Assembly: GCA_050949525.1 (NCBI GenBank)
Contig: JBMNFW010000001.1
Location: 271,890 to 335,889, forward strand
Source of the DNA: Patescibacteria group bacterium
GTDB lineage: Bacteria > Patescibacteriota > Patescibacteriia > Patescibacteriales > UBA12465
Length of the DNA stretch: 64,000 bases
Direction: 5' to 3'
Position numbers and translations under genes: made by a program
Notes under the pieces: model-generated
The model's input: only the letters and a program-made list of their open reading frames with translations
Told to the model about the DNA's origin: nothing
Databases searched by the model: none
Shown: positions 11,721 through 19,499 of the stretch, in pieces
Layout: the number at the start of each line of letters is the position of its first letter
Position numbering within the stretch: position 1 is the stretch's first letter

Positions 11721-12116
11721 ATGGCAGTAAGAATTTCTGGAATAAATATTCCTAATGATAAAAGAGTCGAGGTGGCCCTAACCTATATCCATGGAATTGG
11801 ACTAAAGACTTCACAAGATATTCTAAAGAAGGCTAAAGTTAATCCTAATACTCGAGTTAAAGATTTAAAAGAAAGTGAAGCTAATACTTTACGTGATATT
11901 ATTGAAAAAAATTATGTAACTGAAGGGGATCTTCGTCGAGAAGTAGCTAGTAATATTAAACGATTGAAAGAAATAGGATCTCGAGTTGGGATTTGTCATT
12001 CTAAGCATTTACCTGTTCGAGGGCAACGAACTAAAACTAATAGTCGAACAGTGCGAGGAAATAAAAGAGCTACTATGGGATCTGGTAAGAGTAAAGCTGG
12101 AAGTCAAAAAACTTAA
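11721..12116 (+). CDS. rpsM: 30S ribosomal protein S13
   Basis: [32 protein letters not shown], typical S13. Confidence 0.95.
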
Positions 12117-12147
12117 TTTATATCATATATTAAATAATAAATAAAAT

Positions 12148-12738
12148 ATGAGTGAAGAAAAAAAGGAAAAAGATAAACAAGAAGAAGCGGATAAGGAAAC
12201 TAAGGCTTCCGAATTAGAAACATCAGAGGATTTATTTTCTGATGATGATGACTTGTTTTCAGTTGACTCAGAATCTAAAGATGAAACTGAGGATCTACCA
12301 GAAGAAATTAAACAAAAATTAGAAAAAAATAAACAGGCTCGAAGTAAAAAGAAGTTATCTAAGAAAAGAAAGAAAAAGGAGAATATTAGAGTTAAATCTG
12401 GTCATGCCTATATTAAAGCTACTTATAACAATACCGTGATATCTTTAAGTGATAAGTCTGGTAATGTTATATCTTGGGCTAGTGCTGGAATGGCTGGATT
12501 TAAAGGGGCCAAGAAGGCTACTCCTTATGCGGCTCAAATTATTGCTAAAATTGCAGTTTTAAAAGCTAAAGAAGAGTATGGTTTAGAAGAAGTTAAAGTT
12601 TTTGTAGCTGGGGTTGGAACTGGTCGAGAAGCTGCAATTCGAGCTTTAAATGCTAATGGTTTGGAAATAACAATAATTAAGGATGTGACTTCAGTACCTC
12701 ATAATGGTTGTCGTCCTAAAAAAGCTCGTCGAGTTTAA
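12148..12738 (+). CDS. rpsK: 30S ribosomal protein S11 with a ~65-aa acidic/basic low-complexity N-terminal extension
   Basis: The core [46 protein letters not shown] is S11. The first ~65 aa are E/D/K-rich. Confidence 0.93.
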
Positions 12739-12763
12739 TTAATCAAAAATAACTAATATAAAT

Positions 12764-13399
12764 ATGGGAAAAAATTTAGATGCTAAATGTAAACAATGTC
12801 GCCGAGCTGGGGAGAAGTTATTCCTAAAAGGGGAGCGATGCTTTTCACCTAAGTGTGCTATGGTTAAAAGAAATTATCCTCCAGGATTTCATGGTCCTAA
12901 AGGTAAAAAAAGATTAACTGATTATGGTCTACAATTAAATGAAAAGCAAAAGGCTCGAAAGATGTATGGTTTAAGAGAAGGGCAATTTAAGCTTATATTT
13001 AAAAAAGAACAAAGTCGTGGTGGTGATGTTGGGGCTAATTTTCTTAGAGCTTTAGAGATGCGTTTAGATAATATTATTTATCGAGCTGGATTTGCTCCGT
13101 CTCGGCAACAAGCTCGACAAATTGTTAGTCATGGTCATGTCACTATTGATGATAAAAAGATGAATATTCCTTCTTATCAAGTTAAGATTGGTCAAGTTGT
13201 TAAAATAAAGAAAAGTTCTGCTAAGAATAAATATTTTAGGGATTTACCGGAAAGATTAAAAACTTTAGCTCCTGAGCAAAAAAGTTGGCTAGCGGTTGAT
13301 GTGAAGGATTTATCAGCTAAAGTTTTACACGAACCTCGAACTGAAGACCTGCCTCAGAATATTAAAACCCACATGATTATTGAGTTTTATTCAAAATAA
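12764..13399 (+). CDS. rpsD: 30S ribosomal protein S4
   Basis: N-terminal CKQCRR...CFSPKC zinc-ribbon type S4 with an S4 RNA-binding domain (RLDNIIYRAGFAPSRQQARQIVSHGHV). Confidence 0.95.
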   Translation: MGKNLDAKCKQCRRAGEKLFLKGERCFSPKCAMVKRNYPPGFHGPKGKKRLTDYGLQLNEKQKARKMYGLREGQFKLIFKKEQSRGGDVGANFLRALEMRLDNIIYRAGFAPSRQQARQIVSHGHVTIDDKKMNIPSYQVKIGQVVKIKKSSAKNKYFRDLPERLKTLAPEQKSWLAVDVKDLSAKVLHEPRTEDLPQNIKTHMIIEFYSK

Positions 13400-13421
13400 T
13401 TTTTATTAATTTTAAAATAAT

Positions 13422-14234
13422 ATGGAAAAAATAGCTTTAGCCAAAAAAATTGATTTTAAACCTGGGGAGACTGCTAATGATGGAGTAGTCACCATTGAAC
13501 CTCTATTTCCTGGTTACGGCAATACCATTGGTAATTCCTTACGTCGAGTATTATTATCTTCTTTGCCAGGTGCTGCAGTAGTAGGAGTGAAAATAAAGGG
13601 AGTTAAACATGAATTTATGGCTGTTAAGGGGGTCAAAGAAGATGCTATTGATATTATTTTAAATTTAAAGCAATTAAGATTTAAAATTTTAGGAGAAGTA
13701 GAAGAGCCAATTAAATTAGAATTAAATGTACAGGGCAAAAAAACAGTTAGTGCTAAAGATATTAAGAAGAATAGTTTAGTTGAAATTGCTAATCCTGATT
13801 TAGTTTTAGCCACTATTACTGATAATACTGCTAGTTTAGGTATGGATATTTATGTTCTGCCTGGTATGGGTTATTCTATGGTTGATGCTGATAGAAAATC
13901 TAGTAAAGAGGTTGACTATATTGAGTTTGACTCAATTTTTTCTCCAATTATGGGAGTTAATTACAAGGTAGAGAACGTTCGGGTTGGAAAAATGACTAAC
14001 TGGGATAAATTAATTTTAGAAGTAAAAACTGATGGAACTATTTCAGTGGAAGAAGCTTTTAATCAATCAGTTAAGATTTTAGTTGATCAATTTAAAGCTT
14101 TGATTACTTTAGAAGAGAAAGAAGAAAAGAAGGAAAAAAAGGAGGAAAAGAAGGAAGTGAAGAAGGATGATAAGGAAAAGAAAGAAGAAAAGAAAAAGGC
14201 TAGTACTAAAACAACTGCTAAGAAAAGTAAATAA
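13422..14234 (+). CDS. rpoA: DNA-directed RNA polymerase alpha subunit: N-terminal domain only, with a K/E-rich tail in place of the alpha-CTD
   Basis: IEPLFPGYGNTIGNSLRRVLLSSLPGAAV is typical of the alpha-NTD. After ~aa 228 the sequence is EEKEEKKEKKEEKKEVKKDDKEKKEEKKKASTKTTAKKSK. Total length is 270 aa. Confidence 0.9.
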   Translation: MEKIALAKKIDFKPGETANDGVVTIEPLFPGYGNTIGNSLRRVLLSSLPGAAVVGVKIKGVKHEFMAVKGVKEDAIDIILNLKQLRFKILGEVEEPIKLELNVQGKKTVSAKDIKKNSLVEIANPDLVLATITDNTASLGMDIYVLPGMGYSMVDADRKSSKEVDYIEFDSIFSPIMGVNYKVENVRVGKMTNWDKLILEVKTDGTISVEEAFNQSVKILVDQFKALITLEEKEEKKEKKEEKKEVKKDDKEKKEEKKKASTKTTAKKSK

Positions 14235-14251
14235 TAAATTTAAATAATAAT

Positions 14252-14602
14252 ATGAGACATAAAAATAAAGGTAAAATTTTAGGTAGAACTAAAGAGGCGC
14301 GAGAAATGATGTTAAGGAATTTGCTTTCTAGTATTATTATCTATGAAAAGGTAGAGACTACTAAAGCTAAAGCTAAAGCTGTTAAACCATTATTAGAAAA
14401 AGCAATTACTACTGCTAAAAAGGGTGATCTAGCTTCTCGTCGAGAATTGTTAAAAATAATTTTAGAACCTAAGGCGGTTAATAAGTCTTTTGAGGTTTTA
14501 GCTGAAAGATATAAAGATAGGGCTGGTGGTTATAGTCGAATTATAAAAATTGGAAATCGAGTTGGTGATGGGGCTGAAATGGTTCAAATTGAGTTAGTAT
14601 AA
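14252..14602 (+). CDS. rplQ: 50S ribosomal protein L17
   Basis: MRHKNKGKILGRTKEAREMMLRNL; follows rpoA. Confidence 0.95.
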   Translation: MRHKNKGKILGRTKEAREMMLRNLLSSIIIYEKVETTKAKAKAVKPLLEKAITTAKKGDLASRRELLKIILEPKAVNKSFEVLAERYKDRAGGYSRIIKIGNRVGDGAEMVQIELV

Positions 14603-14625
14603 TAAAATTAATAAAAAATAAAAAT

Positions 14626-14973
14626 ATGGAAAGAAAGATACATAAAATTGATGCTAGTGGGCAAGCGGTGGGACGAATTGCTACTCAAATTGCTACTATT
14701 TTACGAGGAAAACATAAACCTGAATTTCAACCTCATATGGATTTAGGTGATATAGTTGAGGTTATCAATGTTGATCAACTTAAATTTAGTGGTAAGAAAT
14801 TAGAACAAAAAAAATATTTTAGTCACACTGGTCATATTGGAGGTTTAAAGGAAAAGAAAATGAAGGATGTTTTCTCTCAAGATCCAGGAGAGGTTTTGCG
14901 ACGAGCGGTCCGTGAAATGTTAGCTCCGACCAGATTAAGAAAAGATATTATGAAAAGATTGATTATTAGATAA
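14626..14973 (+). CDS. rplM: 50S ribosomal protein L13 (short, 115 aa)
   Basis: GRIATQIATILRGKHKPEFQPHMDLGD and HTGHIGGLKE. Both termini are trimmed relative to E. coli L13 as I recall it. Confidence 0.9.
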   Translation: MERKIHKIDASGQAVGRIATQIATILRGKHKPEFQPHMDLGDIVEVINVDQLKFSGKKLEQKKYFSHTGHIGGLKEKKMKDVFSQDPGEVLRRAVREMLAPTRLRKDIMKRLIIR

Positions 14974-14986
14974 TATTATTAAATTT

Positions 14987-15466
14987 ATGAGTGAAGATAA
15001 AAAAACAAAAAAAGCTACTACTAAAAAAACTACTGTTAAAAAAGTAGCTCCAAAAGAAAAAGTTAGTATTAAGGCTAAGAAATATATCAAAGCTATTGGA
15101 AGAAGAAAAACTTCAGTGGCTCAGGTTAGGATGTATGAAAAAGGTAAGGGTGAAATTATTATTAATGATAAATCAGCTTTAGATTATTTTAAAAAAGAGG
15201 AAACAGTAAATATTTTAACTCAACCTTTAAAATTAGTGTCTAAACTAGATGATTTTGATTTTTCAATTATTGTTAAGGGTGGAGGATATTTAGGGCAAGT
15301 AGATGCTATTAAACATGGCATTGCTCGAGCTTTAGTAAAGTATGATCCTGAATTAAAAACTATTTTAAAAACCGATGGACATTTAACTCGAGATCCTAGA
15401 AAAAAAGAGAGAAAGAAACCAGGATTAAAGAAAGCTCGTAAAGCTTCACAGTGGTCTAAGAGATAA
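14987..15466 (+). CDS. rpsI: 30S ribosomal protein S9 with a K-rich N-terminal extension
   Basis: AIGRRKTSVAQVRMYEKGKGEIIIN and the C-terminal KKARKASQWSKR. Confidence 0.95.
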   Translation: MSEDKKTKKATTKKTTVKKVAPKEKVSIKAKKYIKAIGRRKTSVAQVRMYEKGKGEIIINDKSALDYFKKEETVNILTQPLKLVSKLDDFDFSIIVKGGGYLGQVDAIKHGIARALVKYDPELKTILKTDGHLTRDPRKKERKKPGLKKARKASQWSKR

Positions 15467-15490
15467 TTTATTTCATTTATTATATATATT

Positions 15491-15520
15491 AAATCCCCTC
15501 ATTGTAGGGGATTTTATGTT
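15491..15520 (+). terminator. Intrinsic terminator after rpsI
   Basis: AATCCCCT/AGGGGATT stem, 6-nt loop, T-rich tail. Confidence 0.75.
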
Positions 15521-15540
15521 TTAATGAACTTATAATTTAT

Positions 15541-15613
15541 TATAGCTCCAAAAATAAGATAAAATGGAGCTATGATTTGACATATCTCCAAAAATAAGAT
15601 AAAATGGAGATAT
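15541..15613. repeat. Two tandem 32-nt hairpin-capable repeats, 40-bp period, upstream of and over the fic promoter
   Basis: Copy 1 is ATAGCTCCA-aaaataagataaaa-TGGAGCTAT (15542-15573). Copy 2 is ATATCTCCA-aaaataagataaaa-TGGAGATAT (15582-15613). The loops are identical. The single arm difference (G->T) is mirrored in the other arm (C->A). Confidence 0.85.
15577..15605 (+). promoter_or_regulatory. Sigma-70-type promoter of fic, embedded in repeat copy 2
   Basis: TTGACA, 17 nt, TAAAAT. The ATG lies 13 nt after the -10 box, so the leader is very short. Confidence 0.55.
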
Positions 15614-15618
15614 AAAAT

Positions 15619-16761
15619 ATGAAAAATTTTATTGCTGGAAAATATAAAAAACAATTTCGAGATAAGGAATTCGAATATCAGAGTTTTTCACCAACATTCA
15701 TAAATCGTGATTTTAATTGGTGTGATAAAAAAATTGACGTTTTATTGGAGCGAGCGACTCGATTATTGGGAGAGCTTAATGCTTATTCGTATTTAGTTCC
15801 TGATGTTAATTTTTTTATTCAAATGAATGTTGTTAGGGAGGCTACTAAGTCTAGTATGATTGAGGGTACTCGTACAGATATTGATGAAGTGATATTACCA
15901 AGAGAGGAGATTGATCCAAGAAAAAGGGATGATTGGGAAGAGGTGCAAAACTATATAAAAGCACTTAATTTTGCTATTTCTGAATTAAAAGTTTTACCAC
16001 TTAGTATGAGATTAATTTGTGAAACTCATAAAAAACTATTATTAGGTGTAAGAGGTGAGTATAAAAATCCTGGAGAAATAAGACGAAGTCAAAATTGGAT
16101 TGGCGGATCTTCTTTATCTGATGCTTTTTTTATTCCACCTAGTTATGAAGAGCTTCCAGATTTACTCGCCGATGTTGAAAAATTTTGGCATAATAAAAGT
16201 TTAAATTTACCTTTGATAATAAAAATAGGTATTATTCATTATCAGTTTGAAACTATTCACCCCTTTTTGGACGGTAACGGTCGCATTGGTAGACTTTTAA
16301 TTGCATTACAATTAGTTGAATCAAAAATTTTAACTAAACCTACTCTCTATCTATCAGTTTTTTTTGAGAAAAATAGAATTTCTTATTATGATTCTTTGAA
16401 TATGGTAAGAAAAAGTAATGATTTGGAGCAATGGATTAAATTTTTTTTGAATGGCATTATTGATACAGCTGATGATAGTATAAATACTTTTAAAAAGATT
16501 ATTAATTTACGTTTAGAATATGAACAAAAGATACTTAGCTTAGGTGTTCGAGCTAAAAATGCTCAGGAATTAATTAGATATATGTTTTCAAAACCAATTG
16601 TTAATTCAAAATTAGTTCAAGAGAATATTAAAATTAGCTCTAATACTTCTAATAGACTTTTAAAATCTCTTATTGATTTAAAGATTGTGGAAGAGATTAC
16701 TGGGTATTCTCGAAATAGATTTTATGTTTTAAGAGATTATTTGAATTTATTTAAGAAATAA
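15619..16761 (+). CDS. fic: Fic-family protein (AMPylase-type) with an internal inhibitory motif and a C-terminal winged-helix-like domain
   Basis: Active-site motif HPFLDGNGRIGR. The upstream SSMIEG matches the (S/T)xxxE(G/N) autoinhibition motif of class II Fic proteins. The C-terminus SNTSNRLLKSLIDLKIVEEITGYSRNRFYV is wHTH-like. Confidence 0.85.
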   Translation: MKNFIAGKYKKQFRDKEFEYQSFSPTFINRDFNWCDKKIDVLLERATRLLGELNAYSYLVPDVNFFIQMNVVREATKSSMIEGTRTDIDEVILPREEIDPRKRDDWEEVQNYIKALNFAISELKVLPLSMRLICETHKKLLLGVRGEYKNPGEIRRSQNWIGGSSLSDAFFIPPSYEELPDLLADVEKFWHNKSLNLPLIIKIGIIHYQFETIHPFLDGNGRIGRLLIALQLVESKILTKPTLYLSVFFEKNRISYYDSLNMVRKSNDLEQWIKFFLNGIIDTADDSINTFKKIINLRLEYEQKILSLGVRAKNAQELIRYMFSKPIVNSKLVQENIKISSNTSNRLLKSLIDLKIVEEITGYSRNRFYVLRDYLNLFKK

Positions 16762-16768
16762 AATTATA

Positions 16769-16797
16769 TTGACTCAATATTTGCTGTATGATACTAT
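16769..16797 (+). promoter_or_regulatory. Sigma-70-type promoter with an extended -10
   Basis: TTGACT, 17 nt (ending TGa), TACTAT. Confidence 0.5.
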
Positions 16798-16835
16798 ATT
16801 ATTATAGTTCTTTTATGAATTTTTTCTAATCTCGT

Positions 16836-16862
16836 GAGATTTGCACAAGCAAATCTCTTTTT
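16836..16862 (+). terminator. Terminator-like hairpin inside the GT2 leader
   Basis: GAGATTTGC-acaa-GCAAATCTC perfect 9-bp stem followed by TTTTTATATTTT. It lies about 32 nt downstream of the predicted start site and 32 nt upstream of the GT2 ATG. Confidence 0.55.
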
Positions 16863-16893
16863 ATATTTTCTAGTTGTGGTAATATAAAGTTGT

Positions 16894-17889
16894 ATGATAA
16901 AAATTACTTTAGGTTTAGTAACCTATAATCAATCTACATTTAAGTATTTAGAGCACTTTTTTTCAAGTTTAAAAGTTTCCTTAAGTTTAGCTTTAGAAAA
17001 GTGGCCTAATTTAGATTTTAAAATAGCGGTTTTTGATAATAGTGATAGTAATTATCAAGATAACTATAATTATCTTAAGGAAGAGGATCGAGTAGTTAAG
17101 ATTTTTCGTTCTGAGGTTAATCTTGGTTTTGCTAAAGCCTATAATCAATTAATACAATGGTCTTTAGAACAAGAGGATCAGTTTTTTTTAATGCTTAATC
17201 CTGATATTTTAGTAGATAAAGATTTTCTTAGGGAAATTATTGAAGTTATTTTAAAAGAGTCAGAGGTAGCTGTTTTAGCTCCTAAAATATATTATTGGGA
17301 TTTCGTTAATAAAGCTAAGACTAGGATTATTGATAGTTGTGGTTTAGGTTTAAGTCGAGCTCATTATTTTTTTGATCGAGGTCAGGGAAAATTAGATCAA
17401 CTTGATTATCGTGATCAAGAAGAAATTTTTGGTTTTACTGGGGCGGGAGCTTTAATTAATTTAGAGAGAATAAAAAAAATAGCTTATAATGAAAAAGAGT
17501 TTTTTGATGAAATGATGTTTATGTATAAAGAGGATATTGATCTTTCTTATCGATTACAAATAGCTGGAGAAAAAATAGTTTTTGTTCCTAAGGCCATTCT
17601 TTATCATGATCGTAGCTTGGGAAAATCTAAATGGCGTCAGTTGTTTAAGCTTAAAAATCGGAATCAGTCTCGACAACAGTCTTTTTTAAATCAGTTGATA
17701 ATTTTGTATAAAATTAGAAAACTTCCTTTTTCTTGGAAAACTAGAGTTTTTTCTGGAGGACGTTGTTTATTGTTAATTATCTATGCCTTTATTTTTGCCA
17801 GACAAGCTCTAAAAGAATTTAGACAAATTAGAAGAGATATTCGAATTCACGTTGGTGATGTAAAAAGAATTGAGAGGTTTATGGTATAA
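16894..17889 (+). CDS. Family 2 glycosyltransferase
   Basis: The N-terminal ITLGLVTYNQ, then DNSDSN, then NLGFAKAYN and NPD pattern is typical of GT2 (rhamnosyl/galactosyl-transferase-like). Confidence 0.75.
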   Translation: MIKITLGLVTYNQSTFKYLEHFFSSLKVSLSLALEKWPNLDFKIAVFDNSDSNYQDNYNYLKEEDRVVKIFRSEVNLGFAKAYNQLIQWSLEQEDQFFLMLNPDILVDKDFLREIIEVILKESEVAVLAPKIYYWDFVNKAKTRIIDSCGLGLSRAHYFFDRGQGKLDQLDYRDQEEIFGFTGAGALINLERIKKIAYNEKEFFDEMMFMYKEDIDLSYRLQIAGEKIVFVPKAILYHDRSLGKSKWRQLFKLKNRNQSRQQSFLNQLIILYKIRKLPFSWKTRVFSGGRCLLLIIYAFIFARQALKEFRQIRRDIRIHVGDVKRIERFMV

Positions 17890-17898
17890 ATTGTTATG

Positions 17899-18997
17899 AA
17901 TAAGTTCAGATACATTTTGGAAAATAAAAAGCCCAAAATGTATGCAGATAAAGTTTAAGTACTATAATTGTCCCGGATTTGGTACATTATATAATGATGC
18001 AATTAAGCAAAAATATATGATTACCAAAGAAGCTAGACAAAGACTCAAAATATTAGAATTTTGGAAGCAATATGGCCTTCAAGCCACTACTGATGCCTTT
18101 GGGGTTAAAAAATCTACCCTATACAATTGGCAAAAAATATTTAGAGAAGGGGGTGGCAAGATAGAAGCTCTCAATCCTAAATCCCAAGCTAGGATTAACA
18201 AGAATAAAAGAGAAATACATCCTCTGATATTAAAAGAGATTAGACGTTTAAGACTAGAGATTTGTCCTAATATGGATAAAACTAAAGTTAAAAAATTTTT
18301 AGATAAATTTTGTGAAATTAATAATTTACCAATATACTCAGAATCAAAGATAGGTAGAATTATTAAAGATAAAGATATATATCATCATAGACAGAAAATA
18401 TCTCATTTTGGTAAGATTAAAAAAATTAAAAAAACTAAAAAGAAAAGAAAACCTAAGGAATTACAAGTAAATAATCCTGGGGATTTAATAGAGATAGATA
18501 CTGTTGTTAGATTTCACAATGGATTAAAGAGATATATTATTACCGCTGTTGATACTTTTAGCCGAACAGCTTTCGCTTATGCCTATAACAGAATTAGTAG
18601 CTCTAATGCTAAAGATTTTTTTAAAAAATTAGAAGAAGTCATGCCCTTTAATATTAAGGCTGTTCAGACTGATAATGGTTTAGAATTCCATCTCTATTTT
18701 AAAAAATACTTAGAAGAGAGAAAAATTGAGCATTATTTCAATTATCCAGGTAGACCATACAAACAGGGTCATATTGAGAAGTTTAATAGGACTATTCAAG
18801 AAGAATTCATTGATTGGAGTGGTGAAAAATACTTTGATAATTTAGATGATTTTAATAATTTGTTAATTGATTGGCTTCTTTGGTATAATACCGATAGACC
18901 ACATTGGAGCCTTGAATTAGTATCTCCGATGAATTATTTGGTTAATAATAATTTTTTTTCCAAAATGACGTGGATTAATACATACGCTTGACTTATT
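17899..18997 (+). mobile_element. IS481-like insertion sequence (single-ORF HTH plus DDE/rve transposase); ends only weakly defined
   Basis: AATAAGT (17899-17905) and ACTTATT (18991-18997) are inverted. CATTTTGGAAAA at 17913-17924 also has a perfect inverted copy at about 18955-18966. I could not identify a clear target duplication. Confidence 0.6.
17942..18991 (+). CDS. Transposase, integrase-core (rve) DDE family
   Basis: HTH region KKSTLYNWQKIF. Catalytic residues lie in IEIDTV, QTDNGLEF and GHIEKFNRTIQEEF. The start may instead be the Met at 18017. Confidence 0.85.
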   Translation: MQIKFKYYNCPGFGTLYNDAIKQKYMITKEARQRLKILEFWKQYGLQATTDAFGVKKSTLYNWQKIFREGGGKIEALNPKSQARINKNKREIHPLILKEIRRLRLEICPNMDKTKVKKFLDKFCEINNLPIYSESKIGRIIKDKDIYHHRQKISHFGKIKKIKKTKKKRKPKELQVNNPGDLIEIDTVVRFHNGLKRYIITAVDTFSRTAFAYAYNRISSSNAKDFFKKLEEVMPFNIKAVQTDNGLEFHLYFKKYLEERKIEHYFNYPGRPYKQGHIEKFNRTIQEEFIDWSGEKYFDNLDDFNNLLIDWLLWYNTDRPHWSLELVSPMNYLVNNNFFSKMTWINTYA

Positions 18998-19079
18998 ATA
19001 TTTATTTTGTTAGATTTTAGATACTTTAAAAGAACCCTTTGGGTTTTTGTGTTTTGATTATTATATAATTTTTTAATTT

Positions 19080-19499
19080 ATGCCTACAATTAATCAGTTG
19101 ATTAGAAAAGGACGAAAAGCGTCAACCAAAAGAAAGAAAAATTTAGCTTTAAGAACTACTTTAGATTCTTTACATCGTAAGAGAAAAGTTAGAACTAAAG
19201 GAGCTCCTTTTAAGCAGGGAGTTTGTCTTAAGGTTACTACTATAACTCCTAAGAAACCTAACTCAGCTTTACGTAAGATTGCTCGTGTTCGTCTTTCTAA
19301 TGGAATGGAAGTTACCGCTTATATTCCAGGTATGGGCCATAATTTACAAGAACACTCTATCGTTCTTATAAAAGGTGGAAAGACTAAAGATTTACCGGGA
19401 GTTAGATACAAAATAGTTCGAGGTGTTTATGATACTCAGGGAGTGGAAGCTCGACGACAGAGTCGTAGTTTATATGGTGCTAAAAAACCTAAAGAATAA
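19080..19499 (+). CDS. rpsL: 30S ribosomal protein S12
   Basis: [12 protein letters not shown]...[11 protein letters not shown]. Confidence 0.96.

Follow-up and report, generated by a model that had tools for sequence, protein, structure and literature searches.

CccR of Yersinia pseudotuberculosis (PDB 7XUX) is a class II Fic protein with a C-terminal helix-turn-helix (HTH) domain that represses its own promoter (PMC9755527). The evidence comprises a lacZ fusion, electrophoretic mobility shift assays, a DNase I footprint and isothermal titration calorimetry. The footprint, AGATAATCAT-N26-ATGATAATCT, lies near the -35 and -10 elements of this promoter, and the HTH half of the protein shifts a promoter probe. 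When the palindrome is mutated, binding is lost and expression rises, and binding depends on the dimer (PMC9755527). SoFic of Shewanella oneidensis (SO_4266, mloA; PDB 3EQX and 3ZCN) AMPylates EF-Tu and, as a dimer though not as a monomer, binds specifically to the 100 bp that directly precede its own start codon; a composition-matched random fragment is not bound (bioRxiv 10.64898/2026.07.09.737422). CbFic2 of Coxiella burnetii (PDB 8CIL) binds random DNA with high affinity, and its DNA-induced dimerisation stimulates (de)AMPylation (PMC10628234). Here, we analysed a stretch of 64,000 nucleotides from a Patescibacteria group bacterium (GCA_050949525.1, contig JBMNFW010000001.1; this whole stretch is referred to as the window), in which two tandem inverted repeats precede the gene for a class II Fic enzyme. 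From the sequence we infer that the repeats are most likely four operator boxes, to which Fic would bind in order to repress its own promoter. We report the layout of these boxes, their overlap with a strong promoter match, their conservation in orthologues, their concerted evolution and the correlation of their sequence with the predicted recognition helix of Fic.

The earlier note on this DNA had described two tandem units, 40 bp apart and with perfect 9-bp arms, and this description holds except for the start coordinate, which is 15542 and not 15541. Copy 1 spans 15542-15573 (ATAGCTCCA-AAAATAAGATAAAA-TGGAGCTAT) and copy 2 spans 15582-15613 (ATATCTCCA-AAAATAAGATAAAA-TGGAGATAT). In both copies perfect 9-bp arms surround the same 14-nt spacer, and the distance from start to start is 40 nt. 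They differ solely by a G>T exchange at arm position 4 and a C>A exchange at the mirror position. The box consensus, ATA[N]CTCCA, extends to about 12 bp. Instead of the two 32-nt hairpin units of the earlier note, four boxes of 9-12 bp at intervals of about 20 bp give the better description of the functional unit. The region contains the following features:

15542..15553, forward strand: box 1, ATAGCTCCAAAA, with the 9-bp core ATAGCTCCA; 5' arm of copy 1
15562..15573, reverse strand: box 2, AAATGGAGCTAT on the forward strand; 3' arm of copy 1
15582..15593, forward strand: box 3, ATATCTCCAAAA; 5' arm of copy 2, occupying the spacer between -35 and -10
15602..15613, reverse strand: box 4, AAATGGAGATAT on the forward strand; 3' arm of copy 2
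15577..15582, forward strand: predicted -35 element TTGACA, within the 8-nt spacer of boxes 2 and 3
15600..15605, forward strand: predicted -10 element TAAAAT, overlapping the inner end of box 4
15560..15565, forward strand: further TAAAAT hexamer, between the arms of copy 1; the matching -35 position reads TTTATT
15619..16761, forward strand: fic, class II Fic enzyme of 380 amino acids
15491..15514, forward strand: predicted intrinsic terminator of rpsI (ribosomal protein S9), with a 9-bp stem, four GC pairs and a T-rich tail; also seen in the predicted fold
16836..16857, forward strand: terminator after fic, from the terminator scan

The promoter TTGACA-17-TAAAAT, which had already been placed under the copies, was recovered at these positions by a consensus scan. 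It matches 11 of 12 consensus positions, has a 17-nt spacer and is the top match of the region. Copy 1 stops 3 nt short of the -35 element; copy 2 opens on the last base of this element, includes the -10 element and stops 6 nt before the fic ATG (15619). Box 4 spans the predicted transcription start at about 15612-15614, a position deduced from the -10 element. As in CccR, an inverted repeat overlaps the -35 and -10 elements of the promoter of the fic gene itself. The position equivalent to the -35 element upstream of copy 1 (15534-15541) reads AATTTATT, and its counterpart for copy 2 reads GATTTGAC. Together with the TAAAAT hexamer in copy 1, this decayed -35 position makes the 40-bp promoter-operator unit look duplicated, and one close relative (L169) shows the same decayed upstream pattern (agatttaa). 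Since fic is bracketed by two terminators, it needs a promoter of its own. A hairpin with a T-run is also present at the position equivalent to the rpsI terminator in close relatives, and fic looks like a monocistronic unit that is insulated from the ribosomal-protein operon.

The encoded protein carries the Fic active-site motif HxFx(D/E)GNGRxxR (HPFLDGNGRIGR, residues 214-225) and, on the same chain, the inhibitory motif (S/T)xxxE(G/N) in the form SSMIEG (residues 78-83). The definition of the latter motif was taken from the CccR study, where it reads S59ARIEG (PMC9755527). Residues S78, E82, G83 and H214-R222 are invariant among 25 homologues. Pfam assigns Fic_N (4.8e-22) and Fic (2.9e-18), and a weak match to HTH_13 (E 4e-4, 20.8 bits versus a cut-off of 26.1). 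SoFic is matched by phmmer over residues 47-375 (E about 1e-32), and Mycobacterium marinum Fic is also among the closest solved relatives; the phmmer and Foldseek alignments with SoFic reach residue ~375, and the template modelling (TM) score from Foldseek is ~0.65 for both proteins. PDB entry 7cb8 had been considered as the CccR structure and was rejected, as it is Mycobacterium marinum Fic. The predicted DNA-binding segment comprises two features:

16594..16734, forward strand: predicted C-terminal winged-helix segment, from DSSP elements on the AlphaFold2 (AF2) model
16639-16677, forward strand: predicted recognition helix, residues 341-353 (SNTSNRLLKSLID), from AF2 and DSSP

DSSP finds a helix at residues 330-337, the helix at 341-353 and short strands (a beta wing), and the predicted local distance difference test (pLDDT) is 83-92 over residues 270-360. 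A search of the PDB with the C-terminal 80 residues returned only marginal winged-helix matches (E ~0.5); this search and Foldseek gave weak similarity to winged helices of the MarR type and of S25. The model, the weak HTH_13 hit and the full-length matches to SoFic confirm the predicted winged helix-turn-helix at the C-terminus that the earlier note had proposed, and residues 341-353 are the likely recognition helix. SoFic, the closest solved structure, has the same order of N-terminal helix, Fic domain and winged helix. CccR likewise combines a Fic enzyme or toxin with a C-terminal HTH and an N-terminal SxxxEG motif on one chain.

Strong evidence comes from the comparison with other fic loci. 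We compared 80 loci from genomes, 80 from metagenomes (among the matches listed, at most 68% identity) and 13 close relatives (79-99% identity), the last obtained through exact-protein look-ups. In the 160 distinct upstream regions, which come from many phyla, we counted dyads, defined as perfect runs of at least 8 bp with a spacer of 3-18, and used intragenic and shuffled sequences as controls. Counting of 8-mer boxes with one mismatch was dropped as too noisy in AT-rich DNA, and these geometry-based counts were used instead. At least one dyad was present in 74/160 upstream regions compared to 8/160 intragenic and 5/160 shuffled controls, and at least two dyads in 39/160 regions and in none of either control. 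A perfect 9-bp dyad with an outer span of 32 bp occurred in 35/160 orthologues, in one intragenic and in no shuffled sequence. The comparison of orthologous upstream regions, which the earlier note had suggested, hence revealed a conserved layout: boxes of 9-12 bp alternate in orientation every ~20 bp, with the -35 and -10 elements in successive spacers. From one dyad centre to the next, the distance is 20-20.5 bp in 39 of 51 cases, and three further cases have 40 bp. TTGAC starts at -40, -20, 0, +20 and +40 from the dyad centres and TANNNT peaks at +2, a register into which the promoter of the window fits. This geometry is kept down to 52% protein identity, with differing box sequences, and box 3 is the best-conserved box position across orthologues. 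In one distant orthologue, from a Desulfobacterales metagenome-assembled genome (L069), fic is preceded at a distance of about 130 nt by a perfect inverted repeat of 30 bp (TTTTCCATATGCAATTGCTTACGGAAAATT-N8-reverse complement), which is far longer than the usual boxes.

In the close relatives (L161-L173, of which the 99% match is GCA_040364275.1) the intergenic regions align well, and the boxes are mostly ATAACTCCA. The layout runs from a reverse box over 8 nt with TTGAC, a forward box and 14 nt ending in TAAAAT to a second reverse box, 8 nt, a forward box and AAAT-ATG. The window and its 99% twin are without 16 nt (ATATATAACTCCAAAA) found in all nine other relatives (alignment A2, columns 101-116), so that the last operator box is gone from these two. 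The loss is flanked by short AAAA direct repeats and cuts the predicted leader to ~5-7 nt. Both sequences have an intact extra upstream box; box 1 is intact in the window, L169 and L173 and degenerate in most close relatives. Position 4 of the boxes is A, G or T among the close relatives and is the most variable and tolerant position, with asymmetric states in L171 (G/A), L172 (an A/C mismatch) and the upstream unit of L169 (A/G). The A-type occurs in three boxes at once in the L162-L169 group, which among the aligned sequences is a concerted change. T is found in more divergent relatives and in most tabulated distant orthologues. The G-type at position 4 of box 2 is common to the same box in L166, L168, L169 and L172 and was probably inherited. 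The exchange of G>T and C>A, which the earlier note had read as compensatory, is real. As evidence it is weak, since position 4 varies freely and sometimes asymmetrically, and the matched substitution adds little on its own to the family-wide pattern.

A functionless repeat, either a recent 40-bp tandem duplication or a mobile or dispersed element resembling a miniature inverted-repeat transposable element (MITE) or a repetitive extragenic palindrome (REP), would turn symmetry and matched substitution into accidents of copying. The 40-nt tandem unit is indeed 80% identical between the repeats (family D1 of the repeat-family search), the identical spacers suggest recent copying or gene conversion between the units, and the matched change falls on the most variable box position. 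In L161, a 99% identical relative, one substitution lies in the spacer of copy 2, so that the spacer is not strictly fixed. With up to three mismatches, the 32-nt unit and its 24-nt core have no third copy in the 64-kb window, and none of 100 dinucleotide-preserving shuffles matched the 32-nt or the 24-nt pattern. CTCCA-N10-18-TGGAG occurs twice in the window versus 0.19 expected; single boxes are not over-represented (9 observed versus 5.2 expected). The exact 24-nt core was not found in viral contigs, and among the 173 loci retrieved the dyad is confined to the position directly upstream of fic, save two likely chance matches (L006 and L013). The search for a dispersed MITE-like repeat, a prospect raised in the earlier note, was accordingly negative in the window, the viral contigs and the 173 loci. 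As orthologues down to 52% protein identity also keep the geometry with other box sequences, we regard a functionless repeat as extremely improbable.

The same units could act at the level of RNA, if hairpins in a transcript from upstream, through rpsI read-through or another promoter, controlled the translation or stability of fic. For example, a hairpin could mask a GGAG (15606-15609) that belongs to the 3' arm of copy 2 and precedes the ATG by 9 nt. Hairpins are predicted for both units, the folding z-score of the region is -4.7, the spacing between this GGAG and the ATG is that of a Shine-Dalgarno site, and the arm pairs remain complementary across relatives. On the other hand, the near-consensus promoter lies inside the array, with a -35/-10 register that is conserved across phyla, so that most arms are upstream of the predicted start, and the rpsI terminator precedes the array. 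GGAG as a masked ribosome-binding site of fic was rejected: GGAG, GAGG, AGGA or AAGG within 20 nt before the ATG was found for one of the 49 open reading frames (ORFs) of at least 150 amino acids in the window, and this one is the GGAG of fic. Nine of 11 close relatives have the same GGAG at a distance of 25 nt to the ATG. The upstream regions of the ORFs in the window are simply A/T-rich, and the organism does not appear to rely on Shine-Dalgarno pairing.

Pairing in the alignment of 11 close relatives bears on the same question. Of the cells, 86% are paired in the hairpin register (forward-14-reverse) and 90% in the alternative register (reverse-8-forward), and both values are above all shuffles and slid controls. 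In the box table of the orthologues, mismatches in paired arms have no bias towards G-U in the sense strand, with two sense wobbles, four antisense wobbles and about nine transversions. An RNA structure needs its own pairs to be matched and does not require one arm sequence per locus, whereas for a protein that binds as a homodimer or oligomer all half-sites have to match; uniform boxes therefore favour a protein operator. An Rfam scan of 14500-17500 with E-values up to 10 returned sub-threshold chance matches alone (best E 0.85, all below the gathering score). Nor are the repeats intrinsic terminators: their loops have 14 nt, a T-run is missing, and the scan reports only 15491-15514 and 16836-16857. 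Taken together, RNA-level control by the repeats is very improbable, and the hairpin or cruciform alternative of the earlier note found no support.

Operator boxes for Fic remain the reading to be compared with an operator for a different protein. Boxes within one locus are alike and differ between lineages: in addition to ATAACTCCA, distant orthologues have ATATTTCCA (L003, L081), ATATCTCAA (L004, L025, L082, L089), ATATTATAA (L006, L088), ATATTGTCA (L086), ATATGTAAAGTT (L020, L093, L098) and ATATTAAAAGTT (L130), with additional variants in other distant loci. The recognition helix varies alongside, with the following pairs of helix and box:

helix NTSNRLL: box CTCCA
helix NTANSLL: box CTCAA
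helix HPxAxxL: box TGTAAAGTT
helix FPTAxAI: box TTAAAAGTT

In pairwise comparisons, the distance between boxes is more closely correlated with the distance between the predicted recognition-helix segments (r=0.79) than with that between the remaining parts of the protein (r=0.69). When the remaining parts are controlled for, box and helix have a partial correlation of 0.61 with a permutation p of about 5e-4 (partial Mantel test). In view of the relatedness of the sequences, we regard this as no more than supportive. In addition, flanking ORFs within 2.5 kb were compared between 19 array-bearing loci (<80% identity), and none was common to any two of them. With a 35-amino-acid threshold, neighbours were shared within the close clade alone, namely ribosomal proteins and prfA. 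The sole gene travelling with the array is therefore fic. A regulator encoded elsewhere in the genome would have to act on an array that accompanies fic across unrelated contexts and phyla, that shares no flanking gene between loci and whose box sequence follows the recognition helix of Fic more closely than the rest of the protein. As, furthermore, the homologous CccR and SoFic domains bind their own promoters and nothing positive was counted for such a regulator from the 64 kb analysed, we consider this explanation clearly improbable. The first alternative of the earlier note, in which the repeats are paired autoregulatory operators that Fic itself may bind, is supported by the conserved register, the exclusive linkage to fic, the co-variation with the helix and the precedent of CccR and SoFic.

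A Fic dimer would bind pairs of boxes via its C-terminal winged helices, and each 32-bp unit would probably take one dimer. The box centres are 20-23 bp apart (~68-78 Å, about two helical turns), which places neighbouring boxes on the same face of the DNA, and the two units at a distance of 40 bp could position two dimers on one face. Bound Fic would cover the -35/-10 spacer, the -10 element and the start site and keep RNA polymerase off the promoter, by which a potentially toxic fic would repress itself. Convergent box pairs (14-bp spacer) and divergent ones (8-bp spacer) are equally symmetric in the relatives, and either may be the dimer site. That Fic is the binding protein, that it represses, the stoichiometry and the pairing of boxes per dimer are what we infer from these observations. 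Cruciform extrusion at the palindromes could instead modulate promoter opening without a sequence-specific protein, for which the perfect 9-bp palindromic arms in AT-rich DNA would be suited. Central spacers of 14 nt and 8 nt make extrusion costly, and it would leave unexplained the single box sequence per locus, the 20-bp phasing and the tracking of the recognition helix; we rate its probability as close to negligible.

Several observations weigh against autoregulation through these boxes. About half of the orthologues are without the array, mostly GC-rich proteobacterial loci with fic inside operons, and many others have a three-box core that is not neatly divisible into symmetric dimer sites. 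The correlation of helix and box is based on 24 related sequences, for which phylogeny can inflate a partial Mantel test. The Fic protein of the window is just ~17-24% identical to the characterised proteins, and the operator geometry is unlike the footprinted case of CccR (N14/N8 versus N26), whose dimer is moreover of another type, with a back-to-back arrangement that SoFic does not share. Finally, the AF2 model has a mean pLDDT of 63 and is poor outside the C-terminal domain. As it is confident for the C-terminal third alone, it was left out of the reasoning on dimer geometry.

The comparison with the described proteins shows the same mixture of likeness and distance. In CccR, the operator consists of a single pair of arms of 10 bp with a 26-bp spacer, whereas the window has four boxes of 9-12 bp with spacers of 14 and 8. 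The relatives of the window have three to six boxes with ~20-bp phasing, a difference from CccR in variant and not in kind. Sequence similarity to CccR covers the Fic domain alone (E 1.6e-12, residues 72-282), with a Foldseek TM score of ~0.45 and 17% identity. CccR is an effector of the type VI secretion system, and nothing suggests secretion of the Fic protein studied here. SoFic is ~24% identical to the latter and provides a precedent for promoter binding, with the site unmapped and repression outside the scope of the preprint. In our own reading of the SoFic fragment in Table S2 of the preprint, ATGTCGAT occurs at -107, -68 and -28 and the reverse box ATCGACAT at -137 and -57. These boxes, to which the preprint does not point, have a period of ~40 bp and are candidate SoFic operator boxes. 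The spacing of the forward boxes echoes the 40-bp period of the window; the reverse boxes are at distances of 11 and 30 bp from these forward boxes, compared to ~20-23 bp in the window. CbFic2 also has a C-terminal HTH on a Fic protein and couples DNA binding to dimerisation. It is distant from the Fic of the window (TM ~0.46), and neither a specific operator nor autoregulation is described for it. Operators of type II toxin-antitoxin systems are similar in that several palindromic sites lie over the -35 and -10 elements of a potentially toxic gene and in that repression comes from the DNA-binding domain of the module itself, as proposed for Fic. Unlike in these systems, DNA-binding domain, inhibitory helix and enzyme are on one polypeptide in the window, a separate antitoxin gene is absent, and none is conserved beside fic.

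By analogy to DNA-induced dimerisation, which activates CbFic2, and to SoFic, whose AMPylation requires dimerisation, it may be speculated that the phased array, beyond being a repressor site, is a platform on which at least two Fic dimers assemble, and that it thereby toggles the enzyme between AMPylation and de-AMPylation. We consider this unlikely. If it were true, the promoter of fic would be an allosteric effector that couples the dosage of Fic to its activity, and a translation-modifying enzyme would be tied to a ribosomal gene neighbourhood, given the position of fic after rpsI and the SoFic target EF-Tu.

All close relatives have the gene order rpoA-rplQ-rplM-rpsI-fic, usually with prfA and comEC next, and by this order fic is a stable resident after rpsI in this Patescibacteria lineage. 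This fixation of a Fic enzyme between translation genes (11721-16761 in the window; L161-L173) is of note, since SoFic, the closest characterised homologue, AMPylates EF-Tu. In several close relatives a small ORF of 49-59 amino acids directly follows fic and is annotated as DUF7695 in two of them (2646-2825 in both L165 and L170; a 49-amino-acid ORF in L162-L164; ORFs of 59 and 66 amino acids in L173). The 132-nt gap between fic and the next gene of the window holds the terminator and is too small for such an ORF. In place of prfA-comEC, the window has a family-2 glycosyltransferase (16894-17889), followed by an insertion sequence-type DDE transposase with an N-terminal HTH (17942-18991; rve/rve_3/HTH_23) and rpsL (19080-19499), which suggests a local rearrangement or insertion at 16894-19499. 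Upstream of fic, ribosomal protein S11 (12148-12738) has an acidic and lysine-rich N-terminal extension of ~70 residues, RpoA (13422-14234) ends in a long K/E-rich tail (KEEKKEKKEEKKEVKK...) and S9 (14987-15466) has an N-terminal extension rich in lysine. These are charged low-complexity additions on core translation and transcription proteins.

The mechanism proposed here is not of a new kind and will be of little surprise to specialists who know the work on CccR. What is new is an operator grammar for the SoFic-like clade, consisting of alternating 9-12-bp boxes with ~20-bp phasing and the -35 and -10 elements in successive spacers. Its geometry is unlike that of CccR, and it comes with natural specificity variants of box and helix and with a fic gene that is fixed after rpsI in one Patescibacteria lineage. 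This may be useful for the annotation of fic promoters, the design of binding experiments and specificity swaps. Among Fic-HTH proteins, CccR is the one for which autorepression has been demonstrated, and for another, SoFic, it has been suggested. The locus analysed here and its orthologues indicate that this arrangement is widespread in the SoFic-like clade, including the small-genome Patescibacteria.

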